64,000 bases of DNA from Bacteroidales bacterium (GCA_045617885.1 JAZLJN010000059.1:5042-69041); one strand, 5' to 3'. Shown: positions 2,871 to 55,726, counted from the stretch's first letter. Notes: a model not told the origin generated them from the letters alone. A program made the numbers and translations.

Positions 2871-5786
2871 ATGAACTACCAGAAAACCAAACTTCAGCAT
2901 TATAAAGGATTCACCAATTGTCTCTTTATTATTTGCACAGCTTTATTAATCCTGTCATGCCGAGGATATCAGGATACGGAACCACAGTTCCGTATCGGTG
3001 TATCACAGTGCAGTGACGATGCCTGGCGAACCAAGCTGAATGAGGAGATGCAGCGAGAGTTGCTTTTCCATCCTGAAATTACCCTGGAAGTACGCTCTGC
3101 CGATGATGACAATGACCGTCAGGCGAGTGATATTGATTATTTTATCAAAGAGAAAGTTGATCTGCTGGTAGTATCGCCCAACGAGGCTACGGTTATTACT
3201 CCAGCCGTCTCACGTGCTTATGATGCAGGCATCCCCGTAATCGTTGCTGACCGCAAGGTGACTGGTGACAAATACACTGCCTTTATCGGTGGTGATAATC
3301 TTGCCGTAGGTCATCTGATGGGACAATCCCTGCTCATGATGCTGCCTGAAGGTGGCAAGGTCTTCGAAATCCTGGGACTTCCTGGCTCTACGCCTGCAGA
3401 ACTCCGCCATGAGGGTTTCATTCAGGCATTAGGCGATAAGGTCAGTCATTATGAGATTGTACAGAGCATCGGCAACTGGTTCCAGGATCAGGCCAAGGCT
3501 GAAGCTATCCGGGTATTTAAGGAAAATCCTGACATCCGCATGGTTGTGGCTCAAAATGACCTGATGGCTATTGGTGCCCGTAGTGCAGCAGACAGCCTGA
3601 TGCCTAATCATGACATTATCTTCATGGGCGTTGATGGATTGACGGGACATGGGAATGGCGTCGAAGCCATTACTCGTGGCAAACTGGAATCATCAGCTGT
3701 CTATGCCACCGGTGGAGACCTGATTATCCAGACAGCCGTGAAGATCCTGCGCGGTGAACCCTTTGAACGCAACACCGAACTCAGCACCTATCTGATTGAT
3801 CCTCTGACCGCCCCTTTGATGAATAACATCTACGAAGAGGTGGATCATGAGGTAGAGACCATACACATGCTCAAAGGCCGGGTAGATTACTACTGGGAGC
3901 AGCATAATCTGGAGCAGACGCTTCTGTACACGATGCTGGCATTCCTGATCTTTGTGGTCATCTTCATCATCCTTCTCTACCGCCAATATTATGCCAAAAA
4001 GAAAGTCAACGAGAGCCTTGCCCGTCAGCAGAAGACCCTGAAGGAACAGCGTGACCAGCTGAAGGAGCAGCGTGACCAGCTTGAGGCGCAGAACGAACAG
4101 CTCAAAAAGCTCTCTGCCCAACTTGAGGAGGCTACTAAAGCAAAGCTGATGTTCTTCACCAACGTATCGCATGACTTCCGCACACCTCTCACCCTCATCA
4201 ACGGGCCTATTGAGCAGCTGATGAAGGAGGAGAGTTCGAAGGAGAAGTCGCAGTTACTCCGCCTTGCCAATAAGAACATACAGGTACTGCTCCGTCTGGT
4301 TAACCAGATTCTGGACTTCCGCAAGTATGAGAGTGGCAAGCTGGAACTCAACCTTCAGGCTGTAGATATGAAGGAGGCGGTGCAGAACTGGTTCGACTCC
4401 TTCCGAGGCCTGGCTTTCAAGAAGCATATTCACCTGGAACTGACTACGGATGACGAAGCTCCAGAGGATGCTTTCCACACCATGGGAGATCTGGCAAAGC
4501 TGGAACGTATCTTCTTTAACCTGATGGGCAATGCCTTCAAGTTCACTCCTGAAAACGGACATATCTCTGTGGGACTGTGCCGAGAGGATAAGACAAATCA
4601 CCTCTTGCTTCGCATTGCAGATACCGGTCCGGGCATCAACGTGGAGCATATCCAGAAAATCTTCGAGAACTTCTACCAGATTGATTCTGCCCATCATGAA
4701 GGTTCAGGCCTTGGTCTGGCACTTGTCAAGAGCTTTGTAGAGCTGCATGGCGGAACAATCAGCGTAGAGAATCAGCCTGTAGGCACGGGCACCATCTTCA
4801 CCGTCTCATTACCAATGCGTGAGATGACCGAGTCGCTGGCACAAATAGAACAGCGCCGAGCCAGCATCAACGCCCAACAGGTGGAAGCAGAGCTGGCAGA
4901 AGTGATTGAGCCACAGGAAATCGCTGAAGATGACCCGAAACCAGCCGTACTGGTCATTGATGACAATGCTGACATCCGCCAGTATCTGCGCACACTGCTG
5001 GATTCTTCCTATCATGTATTTACTGCATCAAACGGACAGGAGGGTATCCGTAAGGCAATGCGTCTGGTGCCTAATGTAATCTTGTGTGATGTCATGATGC
5101 CTGGCATTGATGGCATGGAGACCTGCCGCCGACTCAAGTCGGAGGTCAATACCTGCCATATCCCTGTGATGATGCTCACAGCATGCAGCCTTGATGAGCA
5201 ACGCGTACAAGGCCACCAGGAGGGTGCTGATGCCTACCTCTCCAAGCCTTTCAGCACCGATGTGCTGCTAGCCCAGATCAGCGTGCTGGTCAAGAACCAT
5301 GACCGCATCCGCGACTTCTTCAATCCTGCTCTCTCCCTTTCGAGTCAGTCCTTAGGGAATGCAGAACCAGAACGCACACAGACCGAAACCATTGATGCAG
5401 CCAAGCCTGTCACTTCCGGAGCTGGAACCCAGATCCGTGATAACCGAGGTGCTGTCACGCTTGATGATAAGTTCCTGCGCCGTATGCGCGAACTTATTGA
5501 GAAAAATATGTCTGACTCCGACTTTGGCGTGGAGCAACTGGGCGATGATATCGGCATGAGCCGTGCCCAGCTCTATCGTAAGTGCAAGGCGCTGACTAAC
5601 TATTCGCCCGTAGAACTTATTCGCAACACCCGCCTCAAGCGAGCCCAGCAAATGCTGGCGCAAGGTGACGAGACCATTGCTCAAGTAGCCTATGCTGTAG
5701 GTTTCACCGCACCAAGCTATTTCACCAAATGTTACAAAGAGTACTTTGGTGAGAATCCGACAGAGCTGGTTAAGCGCAAGGGATAA
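2871..5786 (+). CDS. Hybrid two-component system sensor kinase/response regulator with a periplasmic sugar-binding (PBP type I) sensor domain; resembles BT1754, the fructose-sensing regulator of the B. thetaiotaomicron fructan PUL
   Basis: N-terminal lipoprotein-like signal, then a PBP1 domain (RIGVSQCSDDAWR..., VVAQNDLMAIGA). This is followed by a TM helix, a coiled coil, HisKA (FFTNVSHDFRTPLT), HATPase (DTGPGI..., GSGLGLALV), REC (VLVIDDN..., CDVMMPGIDG, LSKPF) and an AraC HTH (APSYFTKCYKEYFGENP). It is adjacent to GH32-containing PULs. Confidence 0.9.
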   Translation: MNYQKTKLQHYKGFTNCLFIICTALLILSCRGYQDTEPQFRIGVSQCSDDAWRTKLNEEMQRELLFHPEITLEVRSADDDNDRQASDIDYFIKEKVDLLVVSPNEATVITPAVSRAYDAGIPVIVADRKVTGDKYTAFIGGDNLAVGHLMGQSLLMMLPEGGKVFEILGLPGSTPAELRHEGFIQALGDKVSHYEIVQSIGNWFQDQAKAEAIRVFKENPDIRMVVAQNDLMAIGARSAADSLMPNHDIIFMGVDGLTGHGNGVEAITRGKLESSAVYATGGDLIIQTAVKILRGEPFERNTELSTYLIDPLTAPLMNNIYEEVDHEVETIHMLKGRVDYYWEQHNLEQTLLYTMLAFLIFVVIFIILLYRQYYAKKKVNESLARQQKTLKEQRDQLKEQRDQLEAQNEQLKKLSAQLEEATKAKLMFFTNVSHDFRTPLTLINGPIEQLMKEESSKEKSQLLRLANKNIQVLLRLVNQILDFRKYESGKLELNLQAVDMKEAVQNWFDSFRGLAFKKHIHLELTTDDEAPEDAFHTMGDLAKLERIFFNLMGNAFKFTPENGHISVGLCREDKTNHLLLRIADTGPGINVEHIQKIFENFYQIDSAHHEGSGLGLALVKSFVELHGGTISVENQPVGTGTIFTVSLPMREMTESLAQIEQRRASINAQQVEAELAEVIEPQEIAEDDPKPAVLVIDDNADIRQYLRTLLDSSYHVFTASNGQEGIRKAMRLVPNVILCDVMMPGIDGMETCRRLKSEVNTCHIPVMMLTACSLDEQRVQGHQEGADAYLSKPFSTDVLLAQISVLVKNHDRIRDFFNPALSLSSQSLGNAEPERTQTETIDAAKPVTSGAGTQIRDNRGAVTLDDKFLRRMRELIEKNMSDSDFGVEQLGDDIGMSRAQLYRKCKALTNYSPVELIRNTRLKRAQQMLAQGDETIAQVAYAVGFTAPSYFTKCYKEYFGENPTELVKRKG

Positions 5787-5827: not shown

Positions 5828-6010
5828 AAATGGGCGCCAAGTGCAAAGGACAGCGGTTGCGAGACCTCGGAACTGACGTTTATGTTATCAAACATCAATT
5901 TCACAACTAAGAAATGGACGCCAAGGGTCATAGACAAGGATTTAAAGATCTTTAAATTGACGTTTGTGTAATCAAACATCAATTTCATAACCAAGAAATG
6001 GACGCCAAGG
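5828..6010. repeat. Intergenic direct repeat with an 84-bp period (about 2.2 copies) carrying the motif ATTTCAyAACnAAGAAATGGACGCCAAGG
   Basis: The AAATGGrCGCCA cores start at 5828, 5912 and 5996, an exact 84-bp spacing. Units 5874-5926 and 5958-6010 are nearly identical. An 18-bp perfect palindrome, ATTTAAAGATCTTTAAAT, lies at 5940-5957. Confidence 0.8.
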
Positions 6011-6054
6011 AAAAAGGGCAGGGATTTGACGACTCTCAAATCCCTGCCCTTTTT
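6011..6054. terminator. Bidirectional intrinsic terminator between the convergent HTCS and GH32 genes
   Basis: aaaaagggcagggattt (6011-6027) pairs perfectly with aaatccctgcccttttt (6038-6054). A and T runs flank it on both sides. Confidence 0.8.
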
Positions 6055-6060
6055 CTGGCC

Positions 6061-8436
6061 TTAAAACCAACGGATAGAATCACCGTTTGCCAAAAGCTGA
6101 TGGAGTGTCAGCTGCTGGGTAACCGGGTCAATGAAGAACCGGACCTCGGAATGAAGCGTCGGTGTATCGCTATGAACAGTCTCAATAGCTGACTCTGAAT
6201 GTTTAGAATCAAGCATCCATGCCTGGACGCTACGTACATGCGTTGCCCCCGAGCTGAAGATGCTGGTACCCACGGCCTCAGCATCCGTAGGGAAGATACG
6301 AATGCTGGCTGCCTGTTCTTCATTGACAAAGAGGTCGAGCACGGAGCCATCAAAGAAGACATGGAGCGTAAAGTCCGAGCCTGTGGCAGGCCGCTGATTA
6401 AGTGTGTGCCGATAGATTCCCTTGAAACTTCCGCCATCATTGACTACGCGCTGCAGGTTTGTTGCATCGACGGTGATGGTACCCGTAGCAGGTGCATAAT
6501 TGATCAGAAGCGCCTTATCATCCTTCTGCAGCAGCCGGAAACCGAAGTCAGAAGTCCCGACCTCAAAGGTAGCAAGTACTTCAAGTTGTCTGCCTGTTAT
6601 GCTGCCAAGGATCTCGGAGCCATTAAGCACAAAATCCTGATGCTGGTAACCGCTATCAGTCAGACGCATAGACTGCAATCCTGCAAACGGGCGCTGCAGG
6701 AGGCGGTCATCTTCAGTCAATGACCATTCGCGAGGCAGACTGTAGCAGTGAGCCCAGCCCCACTTATAGTTATTAGAAGTAGATACTTTATCTGGGACGA
6801 TACCGAGGGCAAGGATGGACTCCTGCTCTGGATTCAGACTGGCATTAGGAGCAAAGATACTGGGCGAAAGCATGCCGTAGCCATCACTGCTCATGCCACT
6901 CATCTCCACAGTCAGTGGCCATGCCTGCTTACTGCTGGGCGTGAATTTGCCATCACTTCCGATAGTGCCAACCCAATAGAGAGTACGTACACCTACATTT
7001 CCGATATTCTGCGGAGTGACGGTGAAGAGCCAGCGCTCCTGATCAATGCGAGTGACGTTAGGCATCTCCCAGAAGGTACCGCAACTCTGTGCCGAGGTGC
7101 CCTGAAAGAAGATGTCGCCATCGTTGCTCCAAGTGCCATTGGCGGCATTGTATTTGTGCAGTGTGCAGCAGCCTACGCCTCCCTTGCTCGAACCTACAAT
7201 AAGGTATGCCCCCTGATCCGTACGGAAGAAATAAGGATCACGGAAGTCATCACTCAATCCGGATGGACGGCTGGCAATACGTGGATTATTGCCCGCCTTT
7301 TGCCATTCAAGCAATGAGGCATCAGTAGGTACGGCAAAGTCGATGCTTGCCTTGACATAATCCACACCCGTATAGATAATGGCAGGATCAGTCGTACCAA
7401 ACACCTCCTCATCCTGCGCTACGCATCCGCTCCAGCAGCCTTTGATATCATAAGAGTCAGCAGGATCGATTGCGATAGGCTGCTCACTCCAGTCATAAAG
7501 GTTTGAACTTGAAAGATGTCCCCAGTGCAGACGGCTCATGTAAGGACCATTGCCATTCTTCTGGAAGAAGAGGTGCCACTGTCCATCGCTATAGGTCAGA
7601 CCGTGGGTCTCATTGGTCCAACCTGCAGATGGCATACCATGGAAACGGGGACGAAGCAGATCTTCTTTGAAGGCATCGGCAGGACAGGTCACGTCCGCCG
7701 CCGAACCACATTTCACGTCGGCGTCATTAGCCAGAGTCTGAATCTCTGAAACTGTCAGGACGTGGTCATAGAGGGCAATATCATCTATGATTCCGTTGAA
7801 GGTATTAAGCAGGAAGCCATCACGAGTCACATCCTCATGGCTCTTGCCTATAAGCAGTGGACCAGTGCCCAGATTCAGTCCGCGACGCATATTGGTCTGC
7901 GCCACCAGCTCTCCATTCAGATATAAGGTAAGCTGGCGTGCCGTAGCATCTACGGTAGCCGCCAGATGGCACCATTGGCGCTTGGGGAGCAACTGTGGTG
8001 CTTCGAGTGAGAATTCACTGCCAGCAGCAGCATAACACTCGAAGCGCCAGTTGCCTCGATTGGTGAGTTGTAGGGCAAATCCTGTGTGTGTGTTGTGGTC
8101 TAATGTACCTGCTATGGTGGTATAGTCATTACGATCCTCATCAATGTTCATCATTGGGTAAGTCTCTGCTGCCAGCCACATCGAAAAGGTGAAAGCGTCG
8201 CCATTGAGCAGAGAGGCATCAATCGGAGCCTCTACATAGGTACTATAACCATCCGTGCGAAGTGCTTTCCCCAAGGCTCCCACTGTACTGACAGCGGAAC
8301 GCTGGCCTTGAACGGCATATTGCTGACCTGTGATACGCTCTGATACCAGATTGTCTGTCACCTCCATGGGGAAGTGGAAAACCTGTGCTTGTGACGTAGT
8401 AGCCAAAAGGGCTAAGAGAGGAACAAAACGATTCAT
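6061..8436 (-). CDS. Secreted GH32 family glycoside hydrolase (beta-fructosidase/fructanase type) with an N-terminal LamG/concanavalin-like domain
   Basis: Signal peptide MNRFVPLLALLATTSQAQ. LamG-like region: FSMWLAAE..., LYLNGELVAQ..., GIIDDIALYDHVLT. GH32 blocks: WHLFFQKNGNG, HWGHLSS, CWSGC, FRDPYFF (RDP), FWEMPN (EC-block equivalent), followed by a C-terminal beta-sandwich. The nucleophile block reads WTNETHG rather than WMNDPNG. Confidence 0.8.
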   Translation of the reverse strand: MNRFVPLLALLATTSQAQVFHFPMEVTDNLVSERITGQQYAVQGQRSAVSTVGALGKALRTDGYSTYVEAPIDASLLNGDAFTFSMWLAAETYPMMNIDEDRNDYTTIAGTLDHNTHTGFALQLTNRGNWRFECYAAAGSEFSLEAPQLLPKRQWCHLAATVDATARQLTLYLNGELVAQTNMRRGLNLGTGPLLIGKSHEDVTRDGFLLNTFNGIIDDIALYDHVLTVSEIQTLANDADVKCGSAADVTCPADAFKEDLLRPRFHGMPSAGWTNETHGLTYSDGQWHLFFQKNGNGPYMSRLHWGHLSSSNLYDWSEQPIAIDPADSYDIKGCWSGCVAQDEEVFGTTDPAIIYTGVDYVKASIDFAVPTDASLLEWQKAGNNPRIASRPSGLSDDFRDPYFFRTDQGAYLIVGSSKGGVGCCTLHKYNAANGTWSNDGDIFFQGTSAQSCGTFWEMPNVTRIDQERWLFTVTPQNIGNVGVRTLYWVGTIGSDGKFTPSSKQAWPLTVEMSGMSSDGYGMLSPSIFAPNASLNPEQESILALGIVPDKVSTSNNYKWGWAHCYSLPREWSLTEDDRLLQRPFAGLQSMRLTDSGYQHQDFVLNGSEILGSITGRQLEVLATFEVGTSDFGFRLLQKDDKALLINYAPATGTITVDATNLQRVVNDGGSFKGIYRHTLNQRPATGSDFTLHVFFDGSVLDLFVNEEQAASIRIFPTDAEAVGTSIFSSGATHVRSVQAWMLDSKHSESAIETVHSDTPTLHSEVRFFIDPVTQQLTLHQLLANGDSIRWF

Positions 8437-8520
8437 GTAATAGACTTTTTATTGCGAATGGAAATGAGTCAACTGTCCAGCAGGATTACTCCCACTGAAC
8501 AGTTGTAATGATGGTGTTTC

Positions 8521-10524
8521 TTATTTCAGATACTCTATGCTATTGGCGGTCAGAGTCTCGATATTCTGCTGGAATTCGTTGCCGGTGTTCTGGCGGAACT
8601 CATAAGCAGAGAGGCCAATGGCAATTACCTTGCCGTCAAACTCGGCGTTGGCATTGAACTCTACGATACCTGCACAGCAGTAATCCTGCACGTGACCCCA
8701 GGTTGCAAGGACGGAAGCAGGGGTTGCATCCTCAAAGTTCACGACTACGTTGGGTGAGCCTGGGAAGCCATAAGAGTTGAGGTCCCACATACAGTTGTGA
8801 TCCTCACGCCAGCCCGGACCCTCCAGGTAGTAACCCTCAAAGCCGTAGCCATTTGGATCACCTGCCTGCATACCGGCAAAGATTGGATGGGTGCGGTGGT
8901 CATACTGGAAGCCGATATTGCACTGCATCATCCAGTAATCGCCGCCCTCGCCGCCAGGACCGGCACCATAGATACCAGGTGCGTACTCGGTTCTGCCAAT
9001 AGCAGCCACAAGCTGGGTGGCATGCTTGGTGAGCAGCAGGTTACCGCCATCCTGGGTGTAGGTCTTGAGTGCAGAGATAGTAGCTTCGTCTGCCAAACCG
9101 AAAGGCAAGTGCTGCCAGCCTGGCTCGGTGCCATCCTCCAGGTCACACTGAATCCAGAGACGGGTCACAACAGAACCATCCAGTTCGGCAAGTTCGGCTG
9201 GTGTAACCATAACACCCTGGCCCTTCATGACATAGTTTTCAGCAAACCACTGTGCTGCTGCCAGATCATCATCGTCCGTTGAAGCGGTGAGCAGGAAACC
9301 AGCCTTGGTGGAAAGCTCGCCCTGTGGACCATGTTCAACCAGATAGTCGATACTATTGGCTGTGAGCAATTCAATGTTCTGCTGGAATTCGTTGCCTGTG
9401 TTCTGGCGGAACTCATAAGCAGAGAGGCCGATGGCAATTACCTTGCCGTCAAACTCTGCGTTGGCGTTGAACTCTACAATGCCTGCACAGCAGTAATCCT
9501 GCACGTGACCCCAGGTTGCAAGGACGGAAGCAGAGGTTGCATCCTCAAAGTTTACCACTACGTTGGGCGAGCCTGGGAAGCCATAAGAGTTGTGGTCCCA
9601 CATACAGTTGTGATCCTCACGCCAGCCCGGACCCTCCAGGTAATAACCCTCAAAGCCGTAGCCATTTGGATCACCTGCCTGCATACCGGCAAAGATTGGA
9701 TGGGTGCGGTGGTCATACTGGAAGCCGATATTGCACTGCATCATCCAGTAATCGCCGCCCTCGCCGCCAGGACCAGCACCATAGATGCCAGGAGCGTACT
9801 CTGTTCTGCCAATAGCAGCCACAAGCTGGGTGGCATGCTTGGTGAGCAGCAGGTTACCGCCATCCTGTGCGAAGCTCTTAAGAGCCTCGATAGTGGCATC
9901 ATCTGCCAAACCGAAAGGCAAGTGCTGCCAGCCTGGCTCGGTGCCATCCTCCAGATCACACTGAACCCAAAGGCAAGAAATGAGGCTTGGAGAGATTTGG
10001 TCGAGCTCGTTCATCTTGATGAATCGACCCTTACCCTTTGCAGCATAATTGTCAAAGAACCACTGTGCAGCTGCCTTATCATCATCATCTGCAATCTCAT
10101 CTATGCTGTTAGCCGTAAGCAGGAATGCAGCAGGAAGTGCACCACCAGAGATTGTTGGATCCACTACTGGAGCAGTATATTCGATACGTACAGCCACACT
10201 CTGACCCAAAGATACAAGACCATCTGCCATCATCACCTTGACGGTATAGATATTATCCTGATTAGTCTGTGCACGCTCAATGTAATAATTAGTTTGAGAA
10301 CCATCAAGCACTGCAATCTGGGTATCATCACGATAAATCAGCACCTTGCTGACGTTGCCTGCAGGCAAAGACCAGGTAAGGGTAAGAGAACGCCCCTCGA
10401 CACTGTATGACAGATTACTGATGGTCTGCAGACCCTCGTTGGCAGCGCCCGGAATCTCCACGTCGTCACATGAGGTGGCGAGCAGAGCGAGGGCTGCGGC
10501 GAGGAATGGATATGTTTTTTTCAT
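8521..10524 (-). CDS. Surface lipoprotein, putative fructan-binding SGBP (BT1761-like position; the DUF4960-like domain label is from memory), with two tandem copies of the C-terminal domain
   Basis: Lipoprotein signal MKKTYPFLAAALALLATSC, then an FN3/Ig-like domain (SLTLTWSLPAGNVSKVLIYRDD). Two domains of about 265 aa follow, each ending ...FRQNTGNEFQQNIE(L/T)LTANSI(D/E)YL. The gene follows susC-susD and precedes GH32, as in the B. thetaiotaomicron fructan PUL. Confidence 0.7.
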   Translation of the reverse strand: MKKTYPFLAAALALLATSCDDVEIPGAANEGLQTISNLSYSVEGRSLTLTWSLPAGNVSKVLIYRDDTQIAVLDGSQTNYYIERAQTNQDNIYTVKVMMADGLVSLGQSVAVRIEYTAPVVDPTISGGALPAAFLLTANSIDEIADDDDKAAAQWFFDNYAAKGKGRFIKMNELDQISPSLISCLWVQCDLEDGTEPGWQHLPFGLADDATIEALKSFAQDGGNLLLTKHATQLVAAIGRTEYAPGIYGAGPGGEGGDYWMMQCNIGFQYDHRTHPIFAGMQAGDPNGYGFEGYYLEGPGWREDHNCMWDHNSYGFPGSPNVVVNFEDATSASVLATWGHVQDYCCAGIVEFNANAEFDGKVIAIGLSAYEFRQNTGNEFQQNIELLTANSIDYLVEHGPQGELSTKAGFLLTASTDDDDLAAAQWFAENYVMKGQGVMVTPAELAELDGSVVTRLWIQCDLEDGTEPGWQHLPFGLADEATISALKTYTQDGGNLLLTKHATQLVAAIGRTEYAPGIYGAGPGGEGGDYWMMQCNIGFQYDHRTHPIFAGMQAGDPNGYGFEGYYLEGPGWREDHNCMWDLNSYGFPGSPNVVVNFEDATPASVLATWGHVQDYCCAGIVEFNANAEFDGKVIAIGLSAYEFRQNTGNEFQQNIETLTANSIEYLK
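8524..10131. repeat. Intragenic tandem duplication with an 813-bp (271-codon) period inside the SGBP gene
   Basis: tgatcctcacgccagcccgg occurs at both 8798 and 9611. The cores 8524-9147 and 9337-9960 are roughly 95% identical by eye at nucleotide level. The N-terminal ~55 codons of each copy have diverged. Confidence 0.95.
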
Positions 10525-10554
10525 AATTTTCTTTTTGTGGGTTATTTCGTTGTT

Positions 10555-10694
10555 TCGATTTTTCGAAGACTCGAATTTTCGAGCATTCGAAGTATCGATT
10601 TATCGAGTCATCGAGATTTCGAGCCATCGAGATTTCGAACCATCGAGTCTTCGACTTTTCGAGATTTCGATTTTTCGAGTAATCGTTCTATCGG
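10555..10694. repeat. 8-bp phased TCGA array (16 perfect units plus degenerate flanking units) in the susD-to-SGBP junction of PUL-1
   Basis: TCGA occurs at 10555, 10563, 10571 and so on to 10675 with no phase slip. TCGT lies at 10547 and 10683, and TCGG at 10691. Confidence 0.95.
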
Positions 10695-10727
10695 TTTTTG
10701 ATGCCCCGATCACTCGATCTCTCCGAT

Positions 10728-12368
10728 TTATTCATACAGTCCGTTGGCGTTATTGACCTCCTCGTAAGGAACTGGCCAGAAGATCTCGTCCTGGCTCATC
10801 TGTGCATCGCCATAGTAGCTTTCGAACTGCTGCTCACTCTTGAAGTAGGCATTCATTGTCTCTACGACACTGCCCCAGCGTACGAGGTCAAACCAACGCT
10901 GGCCCTCCATAGCCAATTCCAGACGGCGTTCCATGCGGACTGCCTTACGGGCATAATCCTGATTTGGGAAGCTTTGATAAAGACCTACCTTATAGTCAGC
11001 ATACATCTCATTAATATCCACAGGGCTGTAAGTATTAGCTTGTGCCAAGGTGCGCTGAGCCTTCTGTCGGACCTCATTAATCTCACGCATAGCAGTATTG
11101 AGGTTGCTATTCTGCTCAATGAGCGCCTCTGCATGAAGCAGGAGTATGTCTGCGTAACGGATGAAGATAAAGTTGAGCGGAGCATGATATGGATAGGTGT
11201 GGAGGCAGCGAGGATCTGCTGGATCAACACACCACTTCTTGCCAGAATAGCCGCTATAGACATCTGCTGCACGTACCCAGCTCTCAGTGTAAGTAAGACC
11301 GCGCCAAGGCATACCGATACGGCCCACAGTGCAGTCCAGACGAGGATCCACATTGCCAAAGTAATCACCTATGACGTGATCTGCTGGTGCGTTGTCAAGG
11401 TAAGGCAAGCCATTAGCGTCAGTGCGGAAGGCATCGACCAGATTCTGTGAAGCATGGAAGAAATCATCGCCTGATCCATACTGGTTACCCTCGCTATAGG
11501 TTACGTTGAGCAGATTGCTCCAACAGATATGCATATTATCGTTGGCAGAAGAGGTCTGCAGAGCAAGGATTGACTCATGGGTATTGTTGAAGTCGATCTT
11601 TGACATATCAAGATAATTGTCATAGAGCGAGTACTGACCGCACTTGATTACCAGATCAGCCCATTTCTCAACCTCGTTCCAACGGCTCTGGAAAGCATTG
11701 ACGCGAGCCAGCATAGCTGCAGCCACATACTTATTGACACGTCCTGGCTGGCTTTGAGTCTCTGGAAGCACGCTATATGCCTGCTCTAAATCTGCCACAA
11801 TGCTGGTGAAAATCTCTTCGCGGCTCATATTGTCATAACGGATGCTGCTAGGATTCTCTGCTGTCTCATCATAATATGGGAAACGCTCAAAGAGATGATA
11901 GAGATCGAAATAGAACCATGCACGCAGGAACTTCAACTCACCGATCAGCGCAGGACGCTGATTCTCTGGGAGGAAAGAATTAATGGCATTGATGGCCTGG
12001 TGTACGCGGGTGATGGCCCAATAGTTGTTCTTCCACTTAAAGAGCAGCGACGCATTATCGCTGGTTATGTTTGAGATTTCCAGCTGGTGAAGATTACCCT
12101 CCATTGAGATGCCACCGCCACCTTTAAGTGCATCGTCAGAACGCACATCAATGATCCAGTTGGTCATTGGGCCGGCAAAGGCCTCATTATTGCCGATGAA
12201 GTGACTCTCCAGTCCAGCGTAGGCAGAAGCAATGAAGGCATCCACATCGTTCTCTGTAAGCTGTCCGGCAGAGAACTGACCATAAGGCTCCTGATCGAGC
12301 AAGTCGTCGCAGCTGGTCATGCTCATTGTGGCTGCAAGAGCGAGAGCACTGAATATATATTTTTTCAT
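10728..12368 (-). CDS. SusD/RagB family nutrient-binding outer-membrane lipoprotein (fructan PUL-1)
   Basis: Lipoprotein signal MKKYIFSALALAATMSMTSCDD. SusD-like TPR body and C-terminal WPVPYEEVNNANGLYE. It lies directly downstream of a SusC-like gene. Confidence 0.9.
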   Translation of the reverse strand: MKKYIFSALALAATMSMTSCDDLLDQEPYGQFSAGQLTENDVDAFIASAYAGLESHFIGNNEAFAGPMTNWIIDVRSDDALKGGGGISMEGNLHQLEISNITSDNASLLFKWKNNYWAITRVHQAINAINSFLPENQRPALIGELKFLRAWFYFDLYHLFERFPYYDETAENPSSIRYDNMSREEIFTSIVADLEQAYSVLPETQSQPGRVNKYVAAAMLARVNAFQSRWNEVEKWADLVIKCGQYSLYDNYLDMSKIDFNNTHESILALQTSSANDNMHICWSNLLNVTYSEGNQYGSGDDFFHASQNLVDAFRTDANGLPYLDNAPADHVIGDYFGNVDPRLDCTVGRIGMPWRGLTYTESWVRAADVYSGYSGKKWCVDPADPRCLHTYPYHAPLNFIFIRYADILLLHAEALIEQNSNLNTAMREINEVRQKAQRTLAQANTYSPVDINEMYADYKVGLYQSFPNQDYARKAVRMERRLELAMEGQRWFDLVRWGSVVETMNAYFKSEQQFESYYGDAQMSQDEIFWPVPYEEVNNANGLYE

Positions 12369-12380
12369 GTTTGGAAAGTT

Positions 12381-12480
12381 TCGAATTAAAAAATACGATT
12401 GATCGAAAAATCGATTGATCGAGAAATCGAATAATCGAATGAATTGAAGGATCGAATGAATTGAAAAATCGGTTTTTCGA
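12381..12480. repeat. TCGA-core array with an 8-bp (occasionally 9-bp) period in the susC-to-susD junction of PUL-1
   Basis: TCGA or one-off variants occur at 12381, 12395 (ACGA), 12403, 12411, 12419, 12427, 12435, 12444 (TTGA), 12452, 12461 (TTGA), 12469 (TCGG) and 12477. Confidence 0.85.
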
Positions 12481-12487
12481 TTTCTTT

Positions 12488-15400
12488 TTAGAATGCTACA
12501 TTTACACCCAGTGTGAAGGTACGTGAACGTGGGTATGCACCATTCTCAACTCGAGCACCATAAGCGCCAAGGTTAAGTTCAGGATCGAGACCTGAATAGC
12601 CTGTAAGAGTGAAGATGTTCTCCACCTGACCAAAGATGTTGACCGAGCTGGCACCGAGATTCTCACACCACTTCTTCGGACAATCATAGCCGAGCTTGAT
12701 GTACTTCATCTTCAGGTATGAACCATCCTCAATGAAGTATGTTGACATACGCTTCTCGTTGTTATTGTCACTGAATGAGACGGCAGGAATCTTTGCATTA
12801 GTATTCTCTGGAGTCCAGGCATTAAGGATGTCATGGCCACGATTGGTGAAGGTATTACCAGAGCTCATGAAATCGAGCTGACGCTTGTTCTCATTGAAGA
12901 TATCAAAACCGAACTCACCGGTGAAGAACATTGAGAGAGTGAATCCCTTGTAGGCGAAGTCAAGATTCAGACCTGCGCTCCAGTCTGGATTAGGATCACC
13001 GATGATGCACTGGTCAGCCTCGTCAATGACACCATTGCCATCCAGATCACGATACTTCATGCGGCCAAGACCCTTGCCTTGCTGTACGGCATAGTTGTTG
13101 ACCTCATCCTGTGTCTGGAACAGGCCATCCACTACATAACCGTAGTAAACACCCATTGGCTGACCCTCCATGAGACGAATGTCACTGCCCTGACTGGTAA
13201 TGGCATCATTCAGCTTTACAACCTCATTCTTATATTTTGAGATATTGAAAGAAGCATTCCAGGTGAAGCCATTGTAATCAGGAGAATGATAGTCAGCGGT
13301 GAGTTCTATACCAGTATTCTTCATATCACCGGTATTGCGCCAGCAGGCTGCATTCTCACCTGCGGTAGAAAGTACCGGAGGAATGGTGAGCATATCCTTG
13401 GTAGTCTTAATATACCAGTCACCGCTGAGGTTAAAGGCGCCGCCCCAGAACTGGAGGTCAAGACCGACGTTAGTCTGCGTAGTGGTCTCCCACTTAAGAC
13501 CGTTGCTGCCAGTAGTGGCGACCTTAATACCAGAGATGGCACCTGTGTTCGTGCCATTGAGGTCATAAGCACCATTGCCTGCATCATAAGCATAAGTGCT
13601 ATAGGTAGCATACTCGCTTACTACGGCAGCGTTACCATTCTGACCCCAGCCAAAACGGATCTTAAGATCTGTAAGCAGATCATTCTCTTTCCAGAATGCC
13701 TCACGTGTAGGACGCCATGCCAAAGTGAAAGCTGGGAAAATGCCTGAATTATCCTTCTTGCCGAGACGCGAAGTAGCATCACGACGAATAGTGAATGATG
13801 CCAGGTAACGGTCTGCATAATTGTAGTCTGCCTTGGCAAAGTAGCTGAACAGACCCCATGCCGACTTGCCACCGCCATTAGTCTGCACGCCAGAGCCAGC
13901 ACCGAGCACCATATAGTTGGTCTCGTCAAAAGCATAGCCCTTACGCATAGCATTGAAACCATCAAAGTTATAGCCGATAGCCTCAACACCAAGCAGGCCT
14001 ACCAGATTGTGCTTGCCCCAATTGCCTACGTAGGTTGCAGTGTTGGTCCAAGTCCAGGTGTCACCCTGACCATACGAACGATTGACGCTAAGCTCATCTG
14101 TCTCTTCGAGCTTACGGCCCAGAGAATTGGTATTGTACTGAATATGTTCGATACCGATGTTTGACTTAAGAGTCAGTCCGCTGATTGGCTTCCACTCTGC
14201 AAAAGCATTACCGAAGATACGCCAGTTCTCGCTGGTATTGTCACGATTGTTGTAGAGTGATTGCATTGGATTGGCATAGTCCGAACCAGCGATCTGGAAT
14301 GGACTGCTGAACTTTCCATCTGGCTGATAGGTTGGGATGCCTGGATGCTGCAACATAGCGAGCGAAGCGATACCACGGTCGCCACCATTTCCGCTTGCGT
14401 TGCTGATCCACTTGGCAACCATGAGATTTTCTCCTACATTAAAATATTTAGATATATTATATGTAGTGTTTACACGAGCACTGAAACGCTGATAGTATGA
14501 TTCCTTCTGTACACCATCCTGATTGATATAGTTCAGAGAGAGCATCATGGTTCCCTTCTCGGTGCTATTTGACACATTGGCGCTGAGGTTGTGAGTCCAA
14601 GCCTCATGATAGATTGCATCCTGCCAATCATTGTCAGCAAGGGTATAACCGTTGTCAGTAGTAGGACGAAGCTTGTTACCGCTGTCATAAAGCTGGGCTG
14701 CATGTGTGCCGGTTGCCATGTAATATACCTGACCCCATTCGTTGGCATTAAGCAATGAATAAGTGTTGGCAATGGTCTGAAGGCTGGAAGTATAGCCTAC
14801 ATTAACGCTGAGTTTGTCTCCCTTACCACGCTTGGTAGTAATAATGATAACACCATTGGCTGCACGGCTACCATAAATTGAAGCAGAGGCAGCATCCTTC
14901 AAAACCTGAATAGATTCAATGTCCGAAGGATTAAGCGAAGAGAGATTCTCTGTGGTAGGCACGCCATCAATAATGTAGAGAGGATCCGAACCGTTGATGG
15001 AACTCATACCACGTACGCGAATCTGCGAACCACCAGAACCTGGAGTTGCATCAGTGGTAATCTGGACGCCAGCCAGACGGCCCTGCATGGAAGAAATCAT
15101 CGAAGGATTTCCTTCAGAAGTCGGTTTCTTCATATCCATCACAGCTACGGCACCGGTAAGATCAGCCTTACGCTGAACGGTATAACCAACTACGACCATT
15201 TCCTCGAGCATTTGAGAGTCTTCGCTCATGAAGACCTCCATCTTCTCGGCAGCAGGCAACTGCTGTGTCGTATAGCCTACAAAACTAAACTGAAGGTTTG
15301 CTCCCTTCTGTACGGTGAGCTCGAAGTTACCGTCCAGGTCGGTCACTGTACCATTGGTCGTACCAACTTCCAGCACCGTAGCACCCATGACTGGCTCATC

Positions 15401-15502
15401 GAAGCCTTTGTCAATCACGGTACCCTGCACCTTCATTGTCTGGGCGATGGCCAGAACTGTTGAAGCCAGTACCATGGTTGCGATTAATAGGAATCGTTTC
15501 AT
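12488..15502 (-). CDS. SusC/RagA family TonB-dependent outer-membrane transporter (fructan PUL-1)
   Basis: Signal peptide, CarboxypepD_reg-like domain (VQGTVIDKGFDEPVMGATVLEVGTTNGTVTDLDGNF), plug (IESIQVLKDAASASIYGSRAANGVIIITTKRG) and a C-terminal barrel ending in F. Confidence 0.95.
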   Translation of the reverse strand: MKRFLLIATMVLASTVLAIAQTMKVQGTVIDKGFDEPVMGATVLEVGTTNGTVTDLDGNFELTVQKGANLQFSFVGYTTQQLPAAEKMEVFMSEDSQMLEEMVVVGYTVQRKADLTGAVAVMDMKKPTSEGNPSMISSMQGRLAGVQITTDATPGSGGSQIRVRGMSSINGSDPLYIIDGVPTTENLSSLNPSDIESIQVLKDAASASIYGSRAANGVIIITTKRGKGDKLSVNVGYTSSLQTIANTYSLLNANEWGQVYYMATGTHAAQLYDSGNKLRPTTDNGYTLADNDWQDAIYHEAWTHNLSANVSNSTEKGTMMLSLNYINQDGVQKESYYQRFSARVNTTYNISKYFNVGENLMVAKWISNASGNGGDRGIASLAMLQHPGIPTYQPDGKFSSPFQIAGSDYANPMQSLYNNRDNTSENWRIFGNAFAEWKPISGLTLKSNIGIEHIQYNTNSLGRKLEETDELSVNRSYGQGDTWTWTNTATYVGNWGKHNLVGLLGVEAIGYNFDGFNAMRKGYAFDETNYMVLGAGSGVQTNGGGKSAWGLFSYFAKADYNYADRYLASFTIRRDATSRLGKKDNSGIFPAFTLAWRPTREAFWKENDLLTDLKIRFGWGQNGNAAVVSEYATYSTYAYDAGNGAYDLNGTNTGAISGIKVATTGSNGLKWETTTQTNVGLDLQFWGGAFNLSGDWYIKTTKDMLTIPPVLSTAGENAACWRNTGDMKNTGIELTADYHSPDYNGFTWNASFNISKYKNEVVKLNDAITSQGSDIRLMEGQPMGVYYGYVVDGLFQTQDEVNNYAVQQGKGLGRMKYRDLDGNGVIDEADQCIIGDPNPDWSAGLNLDFAYKGFTLSMFFTGEFGFDIFNENKRQLDFMSSGNTFTNRGHDILNAWTPENTNAKIPAVSFSDNNNEKRMSTYFIEDGSYLKMKYIKLGYDCPKKWCENLGASSVNIFGQVENIFTLTGYSGLDPELNLGAYGARVENGAYPRSRTFTLGVNVAF

Positions 15503-16943: not shown

Positions 16944-18611
16944 ATGAATAGAATTCTGCTTGCAATTTTCACAATACTTCTGACAATCTCTTTGGGACAG
17001 GCACAAGAGACAAGCAACCATAACCGAATGCGCAATCAGGAAGAACTGCTGGATTTGCTCGATCAGACCATCGAACATCGACAGTTCTTTATCGACGCGC
17101 GTCAGCAGGAGATTGAGGTGCTCAAGAGCCATCTCAAAGGTGCAACTGCCACCATCGAGCGACTGGCGCTCTATTCTGGTCTTTATAATCGGTATGGCAG
17201 CCTGAACAATGACTCGGCATTCGTCTATGCCGAACGTGCCTTTGCTTTGGCGAAAGAGGTAGGACTTGAAATCGATCAGCAACGCACCAGCATTGACTTG
17301 GCTTACTGTTACTGCCTCAGCGGACTATATGATGAGGGTTACCGATTGATGCCCAGCAGGCAGGAGGTACTTCCGGAGGTTCTGCTGAACTATTATATTG
17401 CCCACTGTTCGTTCCTGCAGTGGCAGAGCGAGTTTACTACCATTCCAAAACTCAAGGCAGAGAGACTAAAGCAGTCAAAATGCTATCATGACTCCATCCT
17501 GCTGACTGACAGTAATCCATTGCATCAACTACAGGAACGCGTGCAGATTGAGGGCATGATGTCTCGCCAGGAGGCTCTTAACCGATTGGAACAAACCATA
17601 GATTCCCTCCCCTCAAGCGAAGATTATATCCGCTACATGGCACTAATGGTAGGCACGATCTTCGAAGAGTTGCAACAGCCAGATTCTGCCATCGTCTATT
17701 ATACGATATCTGCCATTTCGGATATGCAGCATGGCATACTTGAGCACGCATCACTGCAACGCGTAGCAGCTCTCCTTTTCGAGAAAGGCAGTGTAGAGCG
17801 CGCCTATCGCTATATGGACTGCTGTCTGAAAGATGCCCACCAGAGTGGAGCACGTCTGCGAGCACTTGAACTCCAGGAAAACCTGGATGTAATCATGGCA
17901 GCCTACAACGGACAGCTGCTGCAGAAGCAACAATCACTGCGTCTGGTACTGATTGTGATTGTGGCATTGCTGGTATTCGTTGTCATCATCAGTTTCTGGC
18001 TCAATAAACTACGCAAGAACCTGAAGAAGAGCAGCCGGCAGTTATTGGCCACGCATGAAGATCTGAAACAAAGCCACCAGCAGCTTGAAGTGGCAATGAA
18101 TGAGGTAAAAAACATGAATGGCCAGCTGGAGCAGACCAACCTCTCCCTTCAGGAAAGTAACCGTATCAAAGATTCCTTTGTGACACAATACATGAAGCAA
18201 TGTCGTGAGGGCATCAGCCAGCTGCAGGGTTATCAGCAGAAACTGCAGCGTCTGGTTATGACACATAGTACTGATCTGCTTGAAGAGACCATCCGCAACA
18301 CTGAAGGACTCGAATCGGAGATGGAAACCTTCTATAACAACTTTGATGAAACCTTCTTAAGCCTTTATCCTGACTTTGTGCAGCAGCTCAATCAGCACCT
18401 TCGCCCAGAAGAACGCTATGCACAGACACCTCACCTGCCTACCGAACTACGAGTGTTCGCCCTAATGCGTCTGGGGGTAACGGATCTTGATGAGATTGCC
18501 GAATTTTTGAGATGCGCTCCAAAGACCGTACTCAACTACCGAAGCCGCCTCCGACAGAAGGCTCAAATCGACAAAGACGAATTAGACCGCTGGATTGTGC
18601 ACAACTCATAG
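16944..18611 (+). CDS. Transmembrane one-component-type regulator: signal peptide, extracytoplasmic TPR-like domain, one TM helix, cytoplasmic coiled coil and C-terminal HTH (DUF6377-like; label from memory)
   Basis: Start MNRILLAIFTILLTISLGQAQ. TM helix LRLVLIVIVALLVFVVIISFWL. Coiled coil QLLATHEDLKQSHQQLEVAMNEVKNMNGQLEQTNLSLQE. LuxR/sigma-70 region-4-like tail ELRVFALMRLGVTDLDEIAEFLRCAPKTVLNYRSRLRQK. It lies immediately upstream of the PUL-2 susC. Confidence 0.65.
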   Translation: MNRILLAIFTILLTISLGQAQETSNHNRMRNQEELLDLLDQTIEHRQFFIDARQQEIEVLKSHLKGATATIERLALYSGLYNRYGSLNNDSAFVYAERAFALAKEVGLEIDQQRTSIDLAYCYCLSGLYDEGYRLMPSRQEVLPEVLLNYYIAHCSFLQWQSEFTTIPKLKAERLKQSKCYHDSILLTDSNPLHQLQERVQIEGMMSRQEALNRLEQTIDSLPSSEDYIRYMALMVGTIFEELQQPDSAIVYYTISAISDMQHGILEHASLQRVAALLFEKGSVERAYRYMDCCLKDAHQSGARLRALELQENLDVIMAAYNGQLLQKQQSLRLVLIVIVALLVFVVIISFWLNKLRKNLKKSSRQLLATHEDLKQSHQQLEVAMNEVKNMNGQLEQTNLSLQESNRIKDSFVTQYMKQCREGISQLQGYQQKLQRLVMTHSTDLLEETIRNTEGLESEMETFYNNFDETFLSLYPDFVQQLNQHLRPEERYAQTPHLPTELRVFALMRLGVTDLDEIAEFLRCAPKTVLNYRSRLRQKAQIDKDELDRWIVHNS

Positions 18612-22008: not shown

Positions 22009-22096
22009 TCGAAGTAAATATATTAACTCGAAAAACTCGAAATATCGAAAATTCGAAATCTTGTTGATTCGAAATATCGACAATTCGATAACTCGT
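22009..22096. repeat. 8-bp phased TCGA array in the susC-to-susD junction of PUL-2
   Basis: TCGA occurs at 22009, 22028, 22037, 22045, 22053, 22069, 22077 and 22085, with TCGT at 22093. From 22037 onwards the 8-bp phase is exact, with 22061 a degenerate TTGT unit. The array starts 4 nt after the susC stop codon. Confidence 0.9.
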
Positions 22097-23895: not shown

Positions 23896-23934
23896 AAAAG
23901 TTAAAAAGTTAAAGAGTTAAAAAGTTAAAGAGTT
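23895..23934. repeat. 8-bp tandem repeat AAARAGTT x5 starting at the susD stop codon
   Basis: The units are aaaaagtt, aaaaagtt, aaagagtt, aaaaagtt and aaagagtt in exact phase. Confidence 0.9.
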
Positions 23935-23959
23935 CCCTGCTGCGAAATAAGGAACTCTT
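23928..23959 (+). other. Stem-loop overlapping the last repeat unit (intra-operon hairpin)
   Basis: aagagttcc (23928-23936) pairs with ggaactctt (23951-23959), with a 14-nt loop. Confidence 0.5.
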
Positions 23960-23993
23960 AACTTACACTTAACTCATTATAAAATTAAGAAAA

Positions 23994-29055: not shown

Positions 29056-29260
29056 TTCATGGCATGGATTTCACAACTTTTAAATGGGCGCCACACACCC
29101 TTGGCAGCCATTTATGAACTGTGAAATGGGCGCCAGCACCCTTGGCCGCCATTTATGAACCGTGAAATGGACGCCAGCACTCTTGGCTGCCATTTATGAA
29201 CTGTGAAATGAGCCCCAGCACTTCTTGGCACGGATTTGCAGATGTGGAAATAGATGCCTT
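29056..29260. repeat. Tandem array (about 5 units, 41-42 bp period) of hairpin units AAATGGGCGCCAgcacccTTGGCCGCCATTTatgaactgtg
   Basis: Unit starts (AAATG) are at 29082, 29124, 29165, 29206 and 29248. Each unit has an imperfect inverted repeat. It shares the word ATTTCACAACTnnnAAATGGrCGCCA with the repeat at 5828-6010. Confidence 0.85.
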
Positions 29261-55674: not shown

Positions 55675-55716
55675 TGATAATTGACAATTAATAATTGATA
55701 ATTGACAATTAATCCA
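55675..55716. repeat. 7-bp phased repeat (TGATAAT, TGACAAT, TAATAAT; a 21-mer x2) in the susC-to-susD junction
   Basis: The units are tgataat, tgacaat, taataat, tgataat, tgacaat and taatcca. Confidence 0.85.
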
Positions 55717-55726
55717 GAATAAAAAT

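Follow-up and report, generated by a model that had tools for sequence, protein, structure and literature searches.

The window analyzed here, a stretch of 64,000 nucleotides of DNA from a Bacteroidales bacterium (GCA_045617885.1, JAZLJN010000059.1:5042-69041), harbors two paralogous fructan polysaccharide-utilization loci (PULs) that lie back to back in the region 2871-27175, PUL1 on the minus and PUL2 on the plus strand. The PUL1 operon starts with the gene of a susC-like TonB-dependent transporter (12488-15502), followed by a susD-like gene (10728-12368, Pfam SusD_RagB and SusD-like_3), the gene of a levan-type surface glycan-binding protein with a DUF4960 domain (SGBP, 8521-10524) and, as the last gene, that of a GH32 fructanase (6061-8436); all four are located on the minus strand and were assigned with Pfam. 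The BT1754-like hybrid two-component sensor of PUL1 (2871-5786) is encoded on the strand opposite to the operon. The SGBP gene contains an internal 813-bp tandem duplication (8527-8826 versus 9340-9639, offset 813 bp, 93% identical), so that its product possesses two nearly identical DUF4960 modules, and PUL2 is preceded by the gene of a DUF6377 protein (16944-18611). The subject of this work is the gap of 203 bp (10525-10727) between susD, its 5' neighbor, and the SGBP gene, its 3' neighbor, which harbors a phased array of TCGA tetranucleotides that we call array 1.

Perfect TCGA cores occur 16 times in array 1, at 10555, 10563 and so on to 10675, all at an identical position modulo 8 and spanning 10555-10678 without a slip. 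Degenerate units are present at 10547 (TCGT), 10683 (TCGT) and 10691 (TCGG), each with the central CG retained, which brings the array to 19 octamers with their CG dinucleotides in exact 8-bp phase (10547-10698, minus strand, as found by a phase scan). A degenerate tail of three NCGA units (10706, 10714 and 10723) follows after a 1-nt slip and extends up to the susD stop codon (10699-10727, minus strand); all 22 of the 22 CG dinucleotides in the gap fit the pattern. On the other side, directly 5' of the SGBP start codon, lies an A-rich repeat-free stretch (10525-10546, minus strand, sense AAUAACCCACAAAAAGAAAAUU) which is unpaired in the predicted fold discussed below. Since the genes are on the minus strand, the array reads (NNNNUCGA)n in the mRNA sense, with A-rich spacers, and it covers the intercistronic spacer from the susD stop to ca. 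25 nt 5' of the SGBP AUG. The four intervening bases vary, with 13 distinct spacers among the 16 units. An earlier description made from the sequence alone (the sequence-only reading) had reported the sixteen cores in perfect phase, the three degenerate units and the variable spacers, and all of this was confirmed.

A search for TCGAN4TCGAN4TCGA with at most one mismatch gave 23 matches in the window as compared to 0.08 expected from shuffled sequences, and when all 256 tetranucleotides were scanned at periods of 6-12 the longest other phased run in the window comprised 5 units. The mean pairwise identity of the array 1 spacers is 0.35, Tandem Repeats Finder (TRF) scores 65% matches, and the units are alike at only ca. 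4-5 of 8 bases. At least 17 substitutions fall in spacer columns versus none in core columns (p <= 6e-5), and a higher-order periodicity of 16 bp is present. A coding role of the region was rejected: the open reading frame (ORF) at 10346-10756 on the plus strand is without a Pfam match and lies antisense to the start of the SGBP gene, and a period of 8 nt is incompatible with a reading frame, in agreement with the earlier opinion that this ORF is an artefact. The junction contains neither a sigma-70-like promoter nor a terminator-like site, and its sense strand has no TTTG motif. A scan of the window against Rfam 15 at the gathering threshold gave no match, and array 1 does not belong to a curated RNA family at that score; a lax scan of 10450-10800 returned only sub-threshold miRNA and snoRNA noise. 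An H-NS-like motif, a resemblance to T-loops, a diversity-generating retroelement, transposon footprints and a rut site were considered on the basis of background knowledge and dropped for their poor fit to the anatomy of the array.

Two further TCGA arrays are found in the window. Array 2 (12395-12438, minus strand), which lies between susC and susD of the same PUL in a gap of 119 bp, consists of one ACGA and five TCGA units in 8-bp phase, surrounded by out-of-phase TCGA or CG at 12381, 12452, 12469 and 12477; its sense strand is T-rich. Array 3 (22009-22096, plus strand) lies between susC2 and susD2 of the second fructan PUL, in a gap of 108 bp. Its phased part (22037-22096) comprises three TCGA units, a decayed TTGT, three more TCGA units and a TCGT in a single 8-bp phase from 22037, while TCGA at 22009 and 22028 is out of phase. 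Other junctions harbor stem-loops (all structures described here are thermodynamic predictions). The SGBP-GH32 junction of the array 1 operon (8437-8520, minus strand) has a conventional stem-loop with a 16-bp perfect hairpin (predicted fold z -4.4), and the susD2-SGBP2 junction (23896-23993, plus strand) has a hairpin with arms of tandem 8-mers, (AAAGAGTT)n facing (AACTCTTA)n (predicted fold z -3.6). The susC3-susD3 junction (55665-55726) carries a hairpin of AATTGAY heptamers (z -3.8).

The array 1 junction was compared with that of related loci (designated by L numbers), all of which keep the susC-susD-SGBP-GH32 order. The neutral rate was taken from the four-fold sites of one flanking gene, and each orthologue comparison concerns a single sequence pair. 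Three relatives have short susD-SGBP gaps, of 27 bp in L119 (93% identity of the SusD1 protein), 40 bp in L121 (85%) and 19 bp in L123 (75%), which bears out the statement of the sequence-only reading that the gap in the window is unusually long; the gaps of L119 and L121 contain a few AT-rich heptamers. In L134 (92% SusD1 identity) the gap measures 93 bp and harbors a TCGA array of period 8 in the same orientation as in the window, with 8 CG-phased units (TCGC, ACGA, TCGA, TCGA, TCGT, TCGA, ACGA and TCGA). When the two arrays are registered on a common imperfect ACGA unit, 25 of 28 core bases and 13 of 28 spacer bases are identical, at a four-fold-site identity of 0.44 in susD (P 8e-7 for the core identity). 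An exact look-up of SusD1 and the 227-aa and 301-aa neighbors gave no match, and a metagenome scan with SusD1 returned one locus of 56% identity, which was uninformative.

A second pair of orthologous arrays was found at the susC2-susD2 junction. Whereas the window has a TCGA array of period 8 at this position, L127 and L135 have six CTAGA units at a spacing of ca. 9 nt (8-10), L133 and L171 have hairpins of ca. 120-137 nt with arms of tandem 8-mers, and L128 to L132 have a gap of 30 bp and no array. In the CTAGA arrays of L127 and L135 all 24 of 24 core bases are identical (P 2e-6 at a neutral identity of 0.576), including a third unit that reads CTAGC in both, whereas the divergence of the spacers (3-5 nt) extends to both sequence and length. 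The window is nearer to L135 than L127 is, yet it possesses the TCGA array, so that one palindromic-core array must have replaced another at this junction. The PUL2 homologue of L127 has as neighbors the genes of a DNA methylase and of a DUF3987 protein, which have the look of mobile-element genes.

Because the cores are kept in these diverged orthologues and the spacers behave like four-fold sites, the comparisons point to selection on the palindromic core and its spacing. The proposal in the sequence-only reading that selection acts in this way, and not on a full repeat unit, is therefore upheld, and we regard both the anatomy of the array and the selection signal as solid and unexpected. 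At the sequence level, the cores appear to be under purifying selection or subject to a core-specific homogenization, while the spacers appear to evolve neutrally. Plain slippage or concerted evolution would homogenize whole units, and such homogenization is not seen. Units that agree at only 4-5 of 8 bases should at present be poor substrates for slippage; five samples with the same SusD2 homologue have identical junctions, with no hypervariability seen, and the unit numbers of other arrays are identical across 3-5 samples. The earlier suggestion of a slippage-prone spacer that tunes expression accordingly found no support in these multi-sample comparisons. Unit number differs between the window, with 19 units, and the diverged L134, with 8, and array 1 is an expansion of an older, shorter array, the last growth of which looks like duplications of two units, in line with the 16-bp periodicity.

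The same comparisons bear on an explanation without any function, in which intergenic arrays of 7-11-bp units, abundant in these genomes, arise, expand and die in intercistronic spacers that tolerate them. Palindromic cores would then persist via fold-back hairpins of single-stranded DNA that favor expansion, and a template-switch (quasi-palindrome) correction would restore the paired cores but not the looped spacers. Turnover at the susD-SGBP junction is indeed rapid, the gap measuring 203 bp in the window as against 93 bp in one relative and 19-40 bp in three others, the type of array differs between close relatives, and the 16-bp periodicity indicates duplication events. Genomes rich in heptamers of the long simple sequence repeat type are also known, as cited in PMC4679880. 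We nevertheless consider this explanation unlikely. The conservation of the cores against near-saturated neutral divergence is very strong and was found in two independent array pairs (P ca. 1e-6 each). Slippage or concerted evolution should have made the units alike, yet spacers within the array are only 0.35 identical; such units should slip poorly, and unit-number polymorphism was absent among the samples. A correction specific for cores is, for 4-bp helices, hypothetical.

To see how widespread such arrays are, one reference genome per species was scanned for six phased TCGA, which gave at least 118 loci; this number being a lower bound, taxon frequencies from the scan are not quantitative, and genes in the fetched loci were called by a crude longest-ORF rule. 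Among the matches listed, arrays with diverse spacers account for 28 of the 42 from Bacteroidales versus 3 of the 62 from other phyla (Fisher p 7e-12), in which 59 of the 62 arrays are homogeneous octamer microsatellites. The Bacteroidales hosts include Prevotella, other Prevotellaceae, Muribaculaceae, metagenome-assembled genomes (MAGs) from rumen and hindgut, P. vespertina and Hoylesella timonensis. Even with the ascertained arrays masked, no phased tetranucleotide in the listed loci is commoner than TCGA at period 8, which is followed by AATT(C) at period 7 and CTAG(A) at period 9. The arrays are intergenic, mostly between co-directional genes, and often extend from the stop codon to ca. 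30 nt before the following start. They are oriented: in 24 of 29 arrays it is the sense strand that is rich in A (p 5e-4), the array flanks are strand-asymmetric (A.49 and T.19 at position -1, A.52 and T.26 at position +1), and on the sense strand the spacers are depleted of G (0.04-0.17 per position), nearly all G being inside the cores. We conclude that array 1 is a lineage-expanded member of a class of intergenic arrays found throughout the Bacteroidales, with TCGA every 8 nt and freely drifting 4-nt spacers, an assignment which is well supported.

The genes next to the Bacteroidales arrays are diverse and include rho-rsmG, ftsA-ftsZ, tadA, argH, nagB, cdaA-pta and FKBP genes. Only the loci from the tadA neighborhood are related to one another, and there the arrays occupy different junctions. 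The sequence-only reading had placed the element in a PUL context and called for a test of enrichment at susC/susD junctions. By the crude gene calls, a susC homologue adjoins the array in one of the 42 listed Bacteroidales loci (L098), and comparison of the SusC and SusD proteins of the window with the ORFs around the at least 118 loci gave matches in L098 and L089 only, so that a link to PULs was rejected. Degenerate-spacer TCGA arrays of period 8 also occur in a non-coding stretch of an integrative mobile element (L139 6176-6232, with counterparts in L138 and L142; L027 4657-4700, with a counterpart in L143), between genes for a tyrosine integrase and Xis-like helix-turn-helix proteins; there the unit number is equal in three independent contigs, with a single spacer substitution.

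Different core types can occur side by side. In L056 (225-7230), from a horse-gut Bacteroidales MAG, nearly every junction of a row of six genes has a different short array with a core and a variable spacer (TAATTCA, TCGAATAA, TCTAGAAAA, AATTATG and TCCTTATAACT), and this one genome contains the core types TCGA, CTAGA and AATTC. Cores that recur are palindromic. A general rule, by which an array would always be either palindromic or matched by an inverted partner, was rejected, as 44 of 126 short-period arrays have neither. Both the row of different arrays in L056 and the many arrays with neither a palindromic core nor an inverted partner speak for the non-functional repeat turnover described above.

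The restriction of diverse-spacer arrays among the listed matches almost entirely to Bacteroidales suggests a lineage-specific factor, and a somewhat unlikely but serious alternative, in line with one of the roles listed in the sequence-only reading, is that the arrays form a multivalent platform for a Bacteroidales-specific oligomeric nucleic-acid-binding protein, each subunit of which would read one 4-nt core per 8 nt. The target could be (UCGAAAAU)n RNA, in the manner of TRAP and HutP, or (TCGAN4)n duplex DNA, in the manner of MetJ and the omega-repressor heptads, and a filament or ring of the protein would modulate read-through, translation or decay at the junction. Short cores under purifying selection with neutral spacers correspond to the anatomy of TRAP and HutP targets, the TCGA arrays keep a strict 8-bp phase, the sense-strand bias favors a reader of RNA, and the array in the mobile element is conserved in three contigs at a regulatory-looking position between the integrase and Xis-like genes. 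Against these points stand the occurrence of at least three core types in one genome (TCGA, CTAGA and AATTC) and the swap of TCGA for CTAGA at one junction, which would require several readers or none. For a reader of single strands it would be coincidental that palindromic cores recur, the CTAGA spacing of 8-10 is hard to reconcile with a rigid lattice on duplex DNA, the number of units varies from 5 to 19, and the unrelated housekeeping genes next to the arrays reveal no regulon logic. A candidate protein was not identified, and literature on RbpB and FopS describes no relevant motif.

The reading that we prefer, tentatively and at somewhat less than an even chance, is that array 1 forms a self-complementary ladder in the operon mRNA, with the cores paired and the spacers looped out. 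TCGA is its own reverse complement, and at a constant period the transcript would be able to fold onto itself in numerous registers with every core paired, giving 4-bp UCGA/UCGA helices separated by symmetric internal loops formed by the spacers. Selection would then retain the cores and their phase and disregard the spacers, while the A-rich, G-poor composition of the latter would prevent pairing with the neighboring translation start. The array would be one interchangeable form of self-complementary elements present at most junctions of these PUL operons, other forms being CTAG(A) ladders of period 9, hairpins with tandem 7-8-mer arms and plain stem-loops. By analogy with REP (repetitive extragenic palindromic) elements and with the stem-loops by which the stoichiometry of the cellulosome is set, such elements may plausibly serve as intercistronic barriers or processing sites that determine how stable the cistrons are, and how strongly expressed, relative to one another.

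In predictions, the RNA of the array 1 junction has a minimum free energy of -61.6 kcal/mol as compared to -44.3 +/- 4.3 for shuffled sequences (z -4.06), with the last 22 nt before the AUG unpaired. The 128-nt array alone gives -44.8. Replacement of TCGA by CTGA, which retains length and composition and abolishes the self-complementarity of the core, reduces this to -13.4, whereas permutation of the spacers leaves it unchanged (-46.7 +/- 2.8). The folding energy is thus entirely due to the cores, and this dependence repeats in five other arrays. CTAG(A) arrays fold with z between -4.2 and -6.1 (-4.2 and -4.8 for the junctions of L127 and L135), the repeat-armed hairpins at the susC2-susD2 junction of L133 and L171 with -3.9 and -3.1, and the other, non-array junctions of these operons form conventional hairpins with z from -2.7 to -6.5. 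The common denominator of the junctions, as far as such models go, is self-complementarity and not a particular sequence, which speaks for a reading based on structure rather than for a sequence-specific reader. In L127 (13401-13520), L133 (3864-4000) and L171 (3883-4000) the hairpin arms likewise consist of tandem 7-8-mers in inverted arrays; in one example (GTGAATA)4 faces (TATTCAC)4 (z -6.5), which represents a second way to obtain stem-loops from short repeats.

Several observations weigh against the ladder. Covariation gives it no support: imperfect cores fall in complementary pairs 4 times versus 7.7 expected, so that compensatory changes were rejected as evidence and an ACGA/UCGU pair in L134 is anecdotal; this absence suits a protein reader better than a pure RNA structure. 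Spacer complementarity is no higher than random, which gives no sign of selection for spacer pairing. Non-palindromic sub-arrays exist, such as (TCGT)5-7 and alternating CCGA, and the 44 of 126 short-period arrays with neither palindrome nor inverted partner belong here as well. Arrays 2 and 3 fold no better than shuffled sequences (z -0.7 and -0.2). Helices of 4 bp separated by 4x4 loops are marginal, with the minimum free energy structure making up 0.5% of the ensemble, and negative z-scores are, in such models, near-automatic for phased palindromes. Finally, the susD-SGBP junctions of L119, L121 and L123 are 19-40 nt long and essentially unstructured, so that any function of the array would be dispensable.

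The composition of the sense strand allows another interpretation, namely a cluster of cleavage or loading sites, with a repeated UCG|A for an endoribonuclease that cuts after G, or spaced YC for Rho, which would uncouple or attenuate the downstream cistrons. RNase Y prefers G, and with the G-depleted spacers nearly all G of the sense strand is located in the cores. The stretch is ca. 200 nt long and untranslated, and the junction has no intrinsic terminator or promoter. We regard this explanation as improbable, since the C/G ratio is only ca. 1.2, the conserved A and T of the core and its palindromy are left unexplained, array 2 is T-rich on the sense strand, and the predicted structure would impede both activities, which are specific for single strands. 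Even more improbable, to a degree that we give it little weight, is the dense TCGA methylation patch also proposed in the sequence-only reading, which would be one that is read by or titrates a TaqI-type methyltransferase or a methylation-sensitive protein. TCGA, like CTAG and AATT, belongs to the classical 4-bp recognition sites of type II enzymes, and it is under-represented in the window (193 observed, with the arrays counted in, versus 249 expected). On the other hand, arrays with another core replace TCGA arrays at one junction, symmetric DNA methylation leaves the strand-oriented spacer composition unexplained, a methylome paper on Prevotella intermedia lists no TCGA motif, and no methyltransferase came up in the window, although none was sought.

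As far as full-text literature searches go, TCGA-octamer or palindromic-core phased arrays of Bacteroidales have not been described, as the sequence-only reading had supposed. The closest kin are intergenic short tandem repeats, in particular the long simple sequence repeats (LSSRs) with 5-11-nt units (Mrazek et al. 2007, as summarized in PMC4679880) and the cyanobacterial short tandemly repeated repetitive (STRR) heptamer arrays. Like these, the TCGA arrays are head-to-tail repeats of 7-9-nt units that are confined to non-coding DNA, phylogenetically sporadic, frequent in certain genomes and lacking at the corresponding site of close relatives; array 1, with a period of 8 and 16-19 units, also falls within the 1-11-nt range of LSSRs and microsatellites. 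However, LSSRs and STRRs are near-perfect copies of a whole unit, whereas here only 4 of 8 positions are kept, the remainder is near-random (0.35), and purifying selection acts on the core alone; with 65% TRF matches and 13 spacers in 16 units the copies are not near-identical. The TAACTGA direct repeats of Beggiatoaceae, cyanobacteria and a few Bacteroidetes (MacGregor 2015, PMC4679880) are similar in being intergenic, mostly in forward orientation 5' of start codons, next to unrelated genes and absent from the shorter gaps of relatives, and a post-transcriptional role has been suggested for them (PMC4679880). They are fixed non-palindromic heptamers, usually in 2-6 copies, without a design of core and variable spacer. 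The location, forward orientation and absence in close relatives of TAACTGA and STRR repeats are shared by the arrays described here, but their heptamer units (TAACTGA, CCCCAGT) are not, the unit being an octamer with a TCGA core.

Self-complementary elements between cistrons are well known. The malE-malF REP is an intercistronic palindrome that sets differential mRNA stability. Similarly, the intercistronic stem-loops of the cip-cel operon of C. cellulolyticum are associated with differential mRNA stability and with the stoichiometry of the cellulosome (PMC4423207). Array 1 resembles REPs, the bacterial interspersed mosaic elements (BIMEs) built from them and these stem-loops in being self-complementary, in its position between cistrons of an operon for a multi-protein machine, and in the proposed tuning of stoichiometry via processing or stabilization. 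Unlike the elements of REP and of SRPS (the selective processing and stabilization of RNA), which are palindromes of 20-40 nt that each form a stable hairpin of their own, array 1 has a palindrome of 4 nt, and its pairing needs a second unit. No REP-associated tyrosine transposase (RAYT) turned up among the scanned proteins of the window, although no search aimed at RAYT was made. An array that does have the own-stem-loop palindrome of REPs and BIMEs, and resembles a REP/BIME-like hairpin array, is found at 48612-48863, where six tandem 42-bp units separate a GH94 gene (46042-48579) from a GH9 gene (48882-50645); each unit consists of a ca. 24-nt palindrome (CCCACACC..GTAC..GGTGTGGG) followed by an A-rich spacer, and the predicted RNA fold of the array has a z of -11.8.

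Other known systems share single features with array 1. The met-box operators of MetJ, which are tandem 8-bp palindromic boxes, and the heptads of the omega repressor are read by rows of ribbon-helix-helix dimers. Contiguous short repeats with a palindromic center are common to both and to array 1, the units of which (NNTCGANN) have the strict 8-bp period of the met boxes. The MetJ and omega sites, however, comprise 2-10 boxes at promoters with the consensus sequences AGACGTCT and WATCACW, whereas the 19 units of array 1 lie within an operon and away from any promoter-like site, with flanks that are neutral and spacers that are strand-biased; the array neither matches AGACGTCT with symmetric flanks nor forms a promoter cluster of 2-5 boxes. 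The RNA targets of TRAP and HutP contain 11 (G/U)AG or 3-6 UAG triplets with non-conserved spacers between them. Array 1 likewise has a short conserved core and non-conserved spacers of near-constant length in untranslated leader or intercistronic RNA, but it differs in core (UCGA versus (G/U)AG) and period, its core is a palindrome, several types of core occur together, and no cognate protein was identified. The hairpins of CNG triplet repeats, in which self-complementary bases are separated by mismatches, also arise from a direct repeat that folds back on itself in any register, a property that in the triplet repeats promotes expansion; here the period is 8 nt, a 4-bp paired block alternates with a 4x4 loop, the units are heterogeneous, and the setting is a bacterial intercistronic region.

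Three longer tandem repeats of different type are also present in the window: 84 bp x 1.8 at 5874-6027 in the gap that separates the convergent genes of the hybrid sensor and the GH32 enzyme, 41 bp x 3.8 at 29075-29230 within a 610-bp intergenic region, and 420 bp x 2.7 at 62888-63994 inside an ORF that runs off the end of the window.

The TCGA arrays are an undescribed but widespread class among the intergenic arrays of Bacteroidales, and kin to known intergenic short tandem repeats. In bacteria such repeats are usually written off as noise from slippage, whereas here orthologues show selection on a periodic palindromic core with neutral spacers, in a pattern that recurs in many rumen and gut Bacteroidales, mobile elements included. 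If the arrays are non-functional, they would reveal a core-specific homogenizing mutational process that is new in bacteria. If the cores are read, by RNA structure or by a protein, the arrays would be a simple and evolvable device to set relative expression within operons, in a lineage without Shine-Dalgarno-based tuning whose polysaccharide-utilization operons require defined subunit ratios. In the most far-reaching case, which we consider an outside chance, Bacteroidales may own an undescribed system, acting post-transcriptionally or at the level of DNA, by which arrays of palindromic 4-nt cores with a spacing of 8-9 nt are read, through an oligomeric protein or multivalent pairing within or between mRNAs, and dozens of such arrays per genome may tune the neighboring cistrons, including the stoichiometry of SusC, SusD and SGBP.

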